Assembly: GCF_003991155.1 (NCBI RefSeq)
Contig: NZ_CP031293.1
DNA: 64,000 nucleotides
Strand: one strand, 5' to 3'
Source: Escherichia coli
Lineage (GTDB): Bacteria; Pseudomonadota; Gammaproteobacteria; Enterobacterales; Enterobacteriaceae
The first letter of the stretch is position 1. Every line of letters starts with the position of its first letter. This document shows positions 47,775-56,054 of the stretch, in pieces. The position numbers were made by a program, and so were the translations under genes. Below the pieces are notes generated by a model. The model was not told the DNA's origin. It did no database searches and saw only the letters and a list, made by a program, of their open reading frames with translations.

Positions 47775-50868
<3,094 letters not shown>

Positions 50869-50870
50869 CG

Positions 50871-51248
50871 ATGATCAATTCGCCCCGAGTGTGTATTCAG
50901 GTTCAAAGCGTCTACATTGAGGCCCAATCTTCACCTGATAATGAACGTTACGTTTTTGCTTATACCGTAACCATACGCAATCTGGGGCGAGCGCCAGTGC
51001 AGTTGTTGGGGCGTTACTGGCTGATCACCAATGGCAATGGCCGTGAAACCGAAGTCCAGGGCGAAGGAGTGGTTGGCGTCCAGCCACTTATCGCGCCTGG
51101 CGAAGAGTACCAGTACACCAGCGGTGCAATCATTGAAACCCCGCTGGGCACCATGCAGGGTCACTACGAAATGATCGATGAAAATGGCGTCCCTTTCAGC
51201 ATCGACATTCCCGTATTCCGACTCGCCGTTCCCACACTCATTCATTAA
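50871..51248 (+). CDS. apaG: ApaG
   Basis: Start at [19 protein letters not shown] (125 aa). Confidence 0.9.
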
Positions 51249-51254
51249 AAGAAT

Positions 51255-52103
51255 ATGGCGACATACCTTATTGGCGACGTTCATGGTTGTTACGATGAAC
51301 TGATCGCATTGCTGCATAAAGTAGAATTTACCCCTGGGAAAGATACCCTCTGGCTGACGGGCGATCTGGTCGCGCGCGGCCCGGGTTCGCTGGATGTTCT
51401 GCGCTATGTGAAATCCTTAGGCGACAGCGTACGTCTGGTGCTGGGCAATCACGATCTGCATCTGCTGGCGGTATTTGCCGGGATCAGCCGCAATAAACCG
51501 AAAGATCGCCTGACACCGCTGCTGGAAGCGCCGGATGCCGACGAGCTGCTTAACTGGCTGCGTCGCCAGCCTTTGCTGCAAATCGACGAAGAGAAAAAGC
51601 TGGTGATGGCCCACGCCGGGATCACGCCGCAGTGGGATCTGCAGACCGCCAAAGAGTGCGCGCGCGATGTAGAAGCGGTGCTGTCGAGTGACTCCTATCC
51701 CTTCTTCCTTGATGCCATGTACGGCGATATGCCAAATAACTGGTCACCGGAATTGCGGGGGCTGGGAAGACTGCGTTTTATCACCAACGCCTTTACCCGT
51801 ATGCGTTTTTGCTTCCCGAACGGTCAACTGGATATGTACAGCAAAGAATCGCCGGAAGAGGCCCCTGCCCCACTGAAACCGTGGTTTGCGATTCCTGGCC
51901 CCGTCGCTGAAGAGTACAGCATCGCCTTTGGTCACTGGGCATCGCTGGAGGGCAAAGGTACGCCGGAAGGTATTTACGCGCTGGATACCGGCTGCTGTTG
52001 GGGCGGGACATTAACCTGCCTGCGCTGGGAAGATAAACAGTATTTTGTCCAGCCGTCGAATCGGCATAAAGATATGGGTGAGGGAGAGGCGGCCGCGTCT
52101 TAA
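51255..52103 (+). CDS. apaH: ApaH, diadenosine tetraphosphatase
   Basis: 282-aa [19 protein letters not shown] with GDLVARG / GNHD metallophosphatase motifs. Confidence 0.95.
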
Positions 52104-52127
52104 CGCTTTACCATTCAGGGAGGAATA

Positions 52128-52727
52128 ATGGCTGACTATTTTGAAATACGTGCTGATTACAATCAGCACACCATCACGGTTTATCAGGCTTACAATGATG
52201 CAATCGCTGACGTCGCCGTACGTGACGGGCGATTTGGCGCACCTTTTTCATTCAACCGCATGACCTGGATTAAACCCTCTTTTATGTGGATGATGGAGCG
52301 TAGCAACTGGGGACTGAAAAAAGATCAACAACGCATTCTCGCAATCCGAATCAAACGCACCTTCTTTGATACATTGCTGGAACAAGCGGTGCTAACCACG
52401 CCGGAAGCCCATGTCTATCCACATGCAGGAGTTTGGGAAACGTTATTTGCGCAAGCAAATGTATATGTTCAGTGGGACCCAGAACGCAGCATAAATGGCA
52501 AAAAACTGGAGCACCGATCATTACAGCTTGGTATTTCTCGTAACTTGATCAGTCAATTTAACGAAGACGCCATTGTTGCCATTGATGATCTGACGCCGCT
52601 GGTGCGAAAGTGTCATAACCTTTTGATAAACGGTAAAACAACACAGGCGAAATCCTTCCTGCCGCCAGAAAAAATTTATCCTGTTAGTGCAACTGCAAGA
52701 AAGGCTTGGGGAATGAAAAATTCCTGA
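52128..52727 (+). CDS. Hypothetical protein, 199 aa (uncharacterized; not in the K-12 apaH-folA interval)
   Basis: ORF with AGGGAGGA RBS directly after apaH; conserved-looking block RMTWIKPSFMWMMERSNWG that I recall, uncertainly, as a DUF-type family. Confidence 0.6.
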   Translation: MADYFEIRADYNQHTITVYQAYNDAIADVAVRDGRFGAPFSFNRMTWIKPSFMWMMERSNWGLKKDQQRILAIRIKRTFFDTLLEQAVLTTPEAHVYPHAGVWETLFAQANVYVQWDPERSINGKKLEHRSLQLGISRNLISQFNEDAIVAIDDLTPLVRKCHNLLINGKTTQAKSFLPPEKIYPVSATARKAWGMKNS

Positions 52728-52762
52728 GACAAATACGCGCCTATTAAGCGGAAAATATCTAA

Positions 52763-53212
52763 GTGCGACAAATCAACGCCGGGCTTAATACCAGAGAAAT
52801 TATTCTGGAAATGATTGACGAAGCAGATGACCCCCCGTTTGCTGAGCAGCGAACCTGGCATCGCAGGCGAATCGCTTTTCTTTGTGAGTGCATCAGCGTT
52901 GCTGTCGACTACGGCTTCTTCTGTTCTGTCTCTCAGCAGTCAATAATGAACATAACCAGGATGGCTGAAGATGTATGGATAACAGAAAGTAAAACGACCC
53001 AACTCATTGATATCTGGCAGCAACTTAAGCAGCTTTATCCGCCAGAAACTATTCCCTATACCCAGCAGTTACCCGCTAAAGAATTGCTTGAACTGCTACT
53101 TTCCAGTCCTGACGATCTTCGAATAATTGAAATCCCTGACATCATCGGCGATGTTTTTGATGACCAAACCTGGATTCGATTATTCAAAAAACACTTTGCT
53201 GATGTTATCTAA
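52763..53212 (+). CDS. Hypothetical acidic protein, up to 149 aa (start uncertain: GTG at 52763 or ATG at 52811)
   Basis: Co-directional ORF 35 bp after the 199-aa gene; Asp/Glu-rich C-terminal half; no recognisable homolog. Confidence 0.5.
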   Translation: MRQINAGLNTREIILEMIDEADDPPFAEQRTWHRRRIAFLCECISVAVDYGFFCSVSQQSIMNITRMAEDVWITESKTTQLIDIWQQLKQLYPPETIPYTQQLPAKELLELLLSSPDDLRIIEIPDIIGDVFDDQTWIRLFKKHFADVI

Positions 53213-53528
53213 CTACGATGTGATGTGTAACAATCTAAAATACATCGCCAGACGACAGACCAAAAAGAAAGTATTTAGCAGATACTCAACATTCTGACTT
53301 CTGTACAGAAATAGCAGAGTTTAAAAACTTAAAATTTCCGGTACTCATCAGAGAAACATCCTGTTTCTTCTGCAAGTTCATTTAATGCCGAGATGGCATC
53401 CTCGTTTACTTCAGTCCACTGTAGAGTGGCTTGAGGGTTTAGACCTACGCAATGAGTGCGACTCACAAAATCGCGCTCACTGGTAAAATCAGACGTCTTA
53501 TCGTTCAATTTGTAGTCATAGCAAAAAC

Positions 53529-56054
<2,526 letters not shown>

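Follow-up and report, generated by a model that had tools for sequence, protein, structure and literature searches.

A third common state of the Escherichia coli apaH-folA spacer: a probable composite islet carrying a DUF4291 gene, an immunity-like gene and a ccdA remnant

Introduction

The spacer between the convergent genes folA and apaH has been published as a plastic site of the Escherichia coli chromosome that takes up foreign DNA (PMC3184786, PMC7232551, PMC7167474). Here we describe this spacer in an E. coli genome (NCBI RefSeq assembly GCF_003991155.1, contig NZ_CP031293.1), using a stretch of 64,000 nucleotides, referred to below as the window, in which an islet at positions 52104-53528 carries two plus-strand open reading frames, ORF1 and ORF2, and a minus-strand ccdA remnant. 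In K-12 MG1655 the apaH-folA spacer is 77 bp long, and in O157:H7 Sakai the gap is filled by ccdA-ccdB. The ccdAB_O157 module occupies the same spacer, adjoins folA and has the same orientation as the ccdA remnant of the window, but it includes ccdB, which the remnant lacks; published work has described the ccdO157 system at this site as degenerating in E. coli. Mine et al. 2009 (Genetics 181:1557) reportedly distinguished classes of the E. coli folA-apaH variable spacer, one of them containing an insertion sequence (IS). The locus and flanks of that study are those of the window islet, and the reading frames were reportedly given no folds or families. The window islet is presumably one of these classes and the spacer of the IS1-carrying strain EF7-18-58 presumably the IS-containing one.

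For ORF1, which belongs to the family DUF4291, an in-silico survey published in 2025 had already proposed that the family is an atypical ADP-ribosyltransferase (ART) with the motifs QA[YF], WIK and [AS]IQ, in which Q replaces the catalytic Glu in a structural alignment (PMC12522546). The same survey predicted NAD+ binding by docking and reported the occurrence of DUF4291 in eukaryotes, with TetR, NUDIX, Macro, ARH and KptA as frequent gene neighbours (PMC12522546). The closest characterised structure found here is that of the RhsP2 toxin domain, solved together with its immunity protein (PDB 7RT7); the RhsP2 toxin modifies structured RNAs by ADP-ribosylation at the 2'-OH, with an R-Y-E triad. 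PARG, NADAR and TARG1-like Macro proteins are known erasers of nucleic-acid ADP-ribosylation.

Our analysis makes it likely that the region is the third common state of this known variable spacer and a composite islet of three independent accessory genes, not a two-gene machine. The islet itself is an already known object, routinely annotated in hundreds of genomes. What is added here is an RhsP2-like fold and an ADP-ribose-eraser gene context for DUF4291, and a provisional assignment of ORF2 to an immunity family.

Results

The islet replaces the entire apaH-folA spacer

The genomic setting is pdxA-rsmA-apaG-apaH ... folA-kefC, and in the window annotation the plus-strand apaH and the minus-strand folA have their stops at 52103 and 53529, respectively. 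BLAST comparison of the window with K-12 and O157 showed that similarity ends precisely at 52103, at the apaH stop codon, and restarts at 53525, indicating that the entire spacer has been replaced. The features of the locus are as follows (aa, amino acids; pI, isoelectric point).

51255-52103, plus strand: apaH, conserved flank, final gene of the surA-pdxA-rsmA-apaG-apaH operon; similarity to K-12 and O157 stops at its stop codon
52104-53528, no strand: whole islet replacing the 77-bp K-12 spacer; GC 0.38-0.46, without flanking direct or inverted repeats
52116-52122, plus strand: Shine-Dalgarno sequence GGGAGGA, 5 nt upstream of the ORF1 ATG
52128-52727, plus strand: ORF1, 199 aa, pI 9.3, full-length DUF4291 (PF14124), predicted ADP-ribosyltransferase fold closest to RhsP2tox
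52763-53212, plus strand: ORF2, 149 aa, pI 4.55, GTG start, N-terminally truncated member of a rare family with a zinc ribbon and a helical domain
53213-53328, no strand: AT-rich convergent intergenic stretch from the ORF2 stop to the stop of the ccdA remnant; no terminator, Rfam match or ccdB trace
53329-53508, minus strand: ccdA remnant, 59 codons, TTG start (PGAP call: 45 aa, 53329-53466), no ccdB
53529-54008, minus strand: folA, conserved flank; similarity to K-12 and O157 restarts at 53525

The original prediction, drawn from the letters of the window, was a two-gene cassette of unfamiliar, AT-rich genes in place of the short spacer, and much of its anatomy was borne out: the 1.4-kb insert is real, a 199-aa reading frame with a strong ribosome-binding site starts 24 nt past the apaH stop, the 149-aa product is acidic, and the islet is AT-rich, with a GC of 0.44-0.45 (0.44 at third codon positions) against 0.54-0.56 (0.61-0.63 at third codon positions) in apaH, rsmA and folA. 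The tail of about 315 bp that it took to be non-coding turned out to hold a CcdA-like reading frame on the minus strand. RefSeq labels the three islet genes DUF4291, hypothetical and CcdA. The original prediction counted this cassette as the second one, and a further insertion relative to K-12 is presumably present elsewhere in the window, outside 50000-55500.

Scans for terminators and promoters predicted no terminator in the 24 nt between the apaH stop and the ORF1 ATG, nor in the convergent gap after ORF2, and the Rfam scan found no RNA element in the islet. Based on the short gap and the terminator prediction, ORF1 is most likely co-transcribed with apaH by read-through; ORF2 follows ORF1 after a gap of 35 nt. 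A repeat search at the islet borders found neither att-like direct repeats nor terminal inverted repeats. The flanks are core housekeeping genes, with no defence gene on either side.

The islet is found in about one tenth of complete E. coli genomes

A layout census was carried out over 5426 complete E. coli genomes. The result showed that the K-12-type short spacer occurs in 2857 of them, the ccdAB_O157 layout in 2022 and the present islet, at 96-100% identity, in 536 (approximately 10%); all three layouts are chromosomal and single-copy, and together they account for 5415/5426. The islet is also present in E. whittamii, E. albertii and Escherichia sp. 93.0816, and ORF1 by itself has also been named from E. 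fergusonii. Together with its low GC and the published plasticity of the site, this frequency agrees with the proposal that accessory cargo sits between conserved convergent genes.

Between Escherichia species (window 52128-53212 compared with E. whittamii L015 and E. albertii L021; L numbers denote the compared loci), the synonymous divergence (dS) of the islet was 0.06-0.14, lower than that of the adjacent apaH and folA (0.23-0.42), suggesting that the islet moved between the species after their split. Within E. coli the divergence of the islet was about equal to that of the flanks. Such a post-split transfer seems to have taken place with breakpoints right at the gene ends and without recognisable att sites or repeats. 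A plasmid search with ORF1 returned near-identical matches confined to records of 0.4-1.3 Mb that are labelled "plasmid" and are probably chromosomal pieces, and thus gave no evidence for a plasmid vehicle.

In E. coli EF7-18-58 (L029, 1759-2733), IS1 adjoins the ccdA remnant, and yiaW/aldB lie beyond it instead of ORF2, ORF1 and apaH, indicating that an IS1-mediated rearrangement removed or relocated the remaining islet in this strain. Other enterobacterial genera likewise carry cargo in the apaH-folA gap (L002, 8001-8570; L007, L008 and L014, 6001-8178). A functional link between DUF4291 and apaH, considered in view of a lambda-phosphatase-like phosphoesterase in the Chryseobacterium cluster described below, was set aside, as the hot spot explains the E. 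coli placement more simply.

ORF1 is a conserved DUF4291 protein with a predicted ADP-ribosyltransferase fold

The Pfam search showed that ORF1 is a full-length member of DUF4291 (PF14124; E 2.2e-68, residues 6-184 against model positions 1-180 of 180), so that the description as an unfamiliar protein is wrong for ORF1. A search at E <= 1e-10 yields 7795 homologues of ORF1; its identity to proteins from Listeria, Chryseobacterium and Prevotella is 53-67%, and its ratio of nonsynonymous to synonymous divergence (dN/dS) across Escherichia is 0.11-0.24. A sequence-profile search of the PDB found no sequence-level match of DUF4291 to any solved structure. An AlphaFold (AF2) model of ORF1 built from 74 sequences (mean predicted confidence, pLDDT, 95.2) recovered the ART core fold, and the best structural neighbour of this predicted structure, by a wide margin, was the RhsP2 toxin domain.

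The likeness to RhsP2 is one of fold. The C-terminal toxin domain in 7RT7 shares 10% sequence identity with ORF1 and no sequence-level match, its R-Y-E triad is not reproduced by the DUF4291 motifs, and it is the terminal part of a 1614-aa Rhs protein. ORF1, in contrast, stands alone as a protein and is strongly conserved. The DUF4291 motifs are found in ORF1 at Q20-A21-Y22, W47-I48-K49 and S131-L132-Q133. The invariant residues R8, R44, R58 and E119 might replace those of the canonical triads (H-Y-E, R-S-E or R-Y-E).

The gene contexts of DUF4291 outside E. coli are dominated by NAD+/ADP-ribose genes in two of the three genera sampled. In Chryseobacterium lactis (L026, 1226-12349) the order is NrtR, NADAR, ... 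DUF4291, bacterial PARG, DUF2971, SIR2, ARH, KptA and the lambda-phosphatase-like phosphoesterase. In Prevotella (L027 and L028, 621-9541) it is WYL, NrtR, two NADAR genes, ARH, DUF4291, a Macro gene 18 bp downstream, and then ARH, KptA and ARH; the Macro domain is a close relative of Streptomyces coelicolor SCO6735 (phmmer E 8e-67 to 5e3b). In Listeria costaricensis the DUF4291 gene comes after a histidine phosphatase gene. The Chryseobacterium and Prevotella clusters, with NrtR at the upstream end, hold nearly every known type of ADP-ribose writer and eraser and several unannotated genes, and no description of such an NrtR-led cluster was found in literature searches on DUF4291 and on NADAR, PARG, KptA and NrtR.

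These observations differ in two respects from the earlier proposal that DUF4291 is a diphtheria-toxin-like, protein-modifying effector (PMC12522546): the nearest structure here is the RNA-targeting RhsP2 domain, and the sampled contexts (NADAR, PARG, TARG1-like Macro and KptA) point to nucleic-acid or ADP-ribose processing and not to a secreted effector. By analogy, ORF1 probably acts on RNA or other nucleic-acid substrates, or on ADP-ribose-derived ones. From the model and the contexts we infer that ORF1, a conserved protein with a transferase fold, belongs to the NAD+/ADP-ribose network and is predicted to be non-toxic.

ORF2 is a truncated member of a rare, immunity-like family

ORF2 contains 24 D/E against 14 K/R residues. 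Its GTG start lies directly behind an in-frame TAA (52760-52762) and has no convincing Shine-Dalgarno sequence. In the window ORF2 ends at a TAA (53210-53212); the commonest allele (155 aa, 595 cluster members) runs six codons further (QLRCDV). Neither Pfam, NCBIfam nor PADLOC matched ORF2, the PHROGs scan gave nothing significant, Pfam found nothing in the whole family, and a sequence-profile search of the PDB with the family returned a PtuB match at chance level only.

The family is rare: an exhaustive HMMER scan of 1.84 billion representatives gave six matches, and a scan of 100,044 species genomes gave four loci. In full-length relatives (189-249 aa) a zinc ribbon of the form CxxC-x(n)-CxxC lies at the N-terminus and is joined through a variable linker to a helical domain, in which WHRRR is invariant and a KHF motif is found at the C-terminal end. 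The Escherichia proteins, of 149 or 155 aa, start just before the helical domain and lack the zinc ribbon, which, with the preceding in-frame stop, indicates that they are N-terminally truncated. The dN/dS of ORF2 across Escherichia was 0.15-0.41, suggesting that the gene is probably still expressed and constrained by purifying selection.

Two relatives occupy the same spacer in other genera. In L002, an enterobacterium with approximately 80% nucleotide identity to E. coli core genes, a 57%-identical relative of 189 aa stands alone between apaH and folA, where neither DUF4291 nor ccdA is present. The spacer of Superficieibacter electus contains a DUF4291 gene (81% identical to ORF1), a gap of 200 bp, a full-length ORF2 relative of 218 aa and a PRiA4_ORF3 gene. 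Distant relatives lie in long co-directional arrays of small genes, together with SMI1_KNR4 (SUKH) and DUF4304 genes (L010-L013) or with ankyrin, SUKH_6 and Imm17 genes (L030). Such arrays are the typical look of poly-immunity loci of polymorphic toxins, as known from the work of Zhang and Aravind. Two of them (L010, 285-12092; L030, 5623-9020) are made up of genes for 90-470 aa, mostly unannotated, with SUKH, DUF4304 (two copies), DUF6138, ankyrin and Imm17 among them; they resemble poly-immunity loci, and several of their families have no Pfam assignment.

An AF2 model of a full-length relative (pLDDT 84.9) showed that the fold resembles the type VI secretion immunity protein SsdAI and DUF416. 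Foldseek against AFDB50 retrieved family members in E. coli O26, Salmonella, Bacteroides and Listeria, followed by weak Imm-5-like, SMI1/KNR4 and DUF416 matches. The family has no sequence-level match to any named immunity family in Pfam or the PDB, and it differs from polymorphic-toxin immunity proteins (SsdAI, which belongs to the SsdA deaminase, DUF416, Imm5-like and SUKH) in its own zinc ribbon, lost in the E. coli copy, and in a WHRRRI motif of its own. As for its position, ORF2 follows an ART-fold gene of doubtful toxicity in the window, its L002 homologue is alone, and its distant relatives are inside immunity-gene arrays. By analogy with these, ORF2 appears to be an orphan, truncated protein of the immunity type.

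The ccdA remnant lacks its ccdB partner

In RefSeq the reading frame at 53329-53508 is annotated as a CcdA family antitoxin, and PF07362 matches the corresponding product of 59 aa in L022 (Escherichia sp.). Compared with CcdA_O157 (77 aa), the N-terminus of the remnant is 4 aa shorter and 14 internal residues are deleted; the C-terminal 29 residues are nearly identical. In the CcdA of F, the C-terminal segment is the part that binds CcdB. No similarity to ccdB was found in the islet at E up to 100, and the islet thus holds no intact ccdAB module. The nucleotide identity to the O157 allele is 80% over 77 nt, indicating that the remnant was not recently derived from that allele. With few substitutions, dN/dS was 0.27-1.3, and the remnant appears to be drifting close to neutrally.

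ORF1 and ORF2 are adjacent at one locus only

The adjacency of DUF4291 and ORF2 was found only in Escherichia spp. and Superficieibacter, each time at apaH-folA, and the two genes did not co-occur across unrelated genomes as an obligate pair would. tblastn found no DUF4291 at the ORF2-family loci of Spirochaetales and Synergistaceae metagenome-assembled genomes or in L010-L013, and PF14124 was absent from the called genes of L030 and L031. Conversely, no ORF2 relative was present in any of the three DUF4291 contexts sampled outside Enterobacteriaceae (Listeria, Chryseobacterium and Prevotella), and BLASTP of ORF2 and P0008 against the unannotated DUF4291 neighbours in Chryseobacterium and Prevotella showed no relationship. 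The rarity of the ORF2 family against 7795 DUF4291 homologues means that this family cannot be a general DUF4291 partner. Each gene also survives damage to the other: in L024 ORF1 has an internal stop and ORF2 is intact, and in E. albertii L021 ORF2 is frameshifted and ORF1 is intact. The proposed two-gene cassette is therefore weakly supported; the adjacency recurs in Escherichia and Superficieibacter, but at one locus, and each gene is found or survives without the other.

PADLOC-DB 2.0 gave no family for any of the three islet proteins at E up to 1, and the NCBIfam and PHROGs scans of all three gave nothing significant. With these results, the housekeeping flanks and the lack of a sensor-effector architecture, the suggestion of defence cargo found no support. 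A counter-toxin role is possible, in view of the immunity-like ORF2 and the ADP-ribose context of ORF1.

Discussion

In the reading that we favour, ORF1 would be read through from the apaH operon and give a basic, single-domain DUF4291 protein with an ART fold, which would bind NAD+ or an ADP-ribosyl adduct and act on RNA, other nucleic-acid or ADP-ribose-derived substrates, as KptA/Tpt1 and RhsP2 act on RNA. It would thus be a non-toxic enzyme of a processing or repair type in the NAD+/ADP-ribose network and not a toxin. ORF2 would be an orphan immunity-type protein, a stoichiometric binder of an incoming toxin that has lost its N-terminal zinc ribbon, and the ccdA remnant is the leftover of a ccdAB module in which the CcdB-binding tail has been kept.

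Several points weigh against this composite reading. A toxin is the top structural neighbour of ORF1, the immunity-like ORF2 lies directly downstream, and this adjacency recurs in Superficieibacter, which is just how a toxin and its immunity gene would be expected to lie. Neither the canonical catalytic Glu nor the H/R of ARTs is present in the motifs QAY, WIK and [AS]IQ, so DUF4291 may be a non-catalytic binder. Co-transcription of ORF1 with apaH is deduced only from their separation by 24 nt, in which no terminator is predicted. The immunity label of ORF2 depends on the gene neighbourhoods of distantly related members (22-30% identity), a guilt-by-association argument, and on helical-fold matches of moderate Z.

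The layout just described could mean that ORF1 and ORF2 form a self-contained toxin-immunity module of the toxin-antitoxin kind, in which a free-standing ART toxin related to the RhsP2-type RNA ADP-ribosyltransferases is followed by its cognate neutraliser. The gene order is that of polymorphic toxin loci and darTG and is identical in Superficieibacter, the genes are 35 nt apart, the products are of opposite charge (pI 9.3 and 4.55), the best structural match of ORF1 was solved in complex with an immunity protein, ORF2 has an immunity-like fold and family context, and the lone L002 homologue could be an immunity gene orphaned by the loss of its toxin. We nevertheless regard such a module as unlikely, given that DUF4291 is highly conserved across phyla and reported in eukaryotes, unlike fast-evolving toxins, that its 7795 homologues face a vanishingly rare ORF2 family, and that E. 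albertii L021 keeps ORF1 intact beside a frameshifted ORF2. The E. coli ORF2 lacks the N-terminal domain of its family and has a poor start site, the DUF4291 family has no canonical catalytic Glu (PMC12522546), and in other taxa DUF4291 lies among ADP-ribose erasers under NrtR with no dedicated binder adjoining. That the islet is instead decaying junk, three functionless insertion remnants kept by linkage to essential neighbours, seems a shade less plausible still. The near-neutral dN/dS of the ccdA remnant, the truncation of ORF2, the pseudogenised alleles of ORF1 (L024) and ORF2 (L021) and the reported degeneration of ccdO157 at this site would all fit decay, but dN/dS across Escherichia species is 0.11-0.24 for ORF1 and 0.15-0.41 for ORF2, ORF1 is preceded by a strong Shine-Dalgarno sequence, and the interspecies dS of the islet (0.06-0.14) below that of the flanks (0.23-0.42) indicates recent spread and not passive decay.

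An anti-phage defence system, in which an ART effector and a partner would fire on infection in a manner comparable to CmdTAC or DarTG, is the reading to which we give least credence. Several defence systems use ART-fold proteins as effectors (PMC11618068), and the islet is low-GC accessory DNA at a hot spot; however, none of its three proteins has a PADLOC match, its PHROG matches are not significant, core housekeeping genes without defence genes flank it on either side, no sensor, chaperone or antitoxin architecture is apparent, and the homologues of ORF1 are embedded in metabolic or repair-type ADP-ribose clusters. Only slightly less remote is the proposal that the locus is an "antidote islet", a hot spot at which three protective genes without their toxins have come together. 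In it DUF4291, as an ART-fold enzyme deprived of the canonical catalytic Glu, would counteract or repair the ADP-ribosylation of RNA or DNA by incoming RhsP2-, DarT- or KptA-like toxins, ORF2 would act as a stoichiometric orphan immunity protein, and the CcdA tail would neutralise plasmid CcdB. On this proposal DUF4291 would travel with PARG, NADAR, ARH and TARG1-like Macro in Bacteroidota because it antagonises nucleic-acid ADP-ribosylation. The composite islet of three independent accessory genes thus remains the reading that we consider likely.

As a genome feature the islet adds little, since the folA-apaH spacer is a textbook plastic site. Of more interest are its genes. DUF4291 is a large, strongly conserved family that has the ART fold and whose gene neighbours clearly belong to NAD+/ADP-ribose chemistry, and E. 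coli lineages such as O26 and O111, in which it lies naturally behind apaH, offer a tractable host in which to look for its substrate. ORF2 defines a small family, with a zinc ribbon and a helical domain, that is apparently part of the immunity repertoire against polymorphic toxins. Neither point would surprise specialists in ADP-ribosylation or bacterial conflict, yet both are testable. If the antidote proposal were true, the DUF4291 family would represent a novel class of enzymes that antagonise ADP-ribosylation while using the transferase fold itself as their scaffold.

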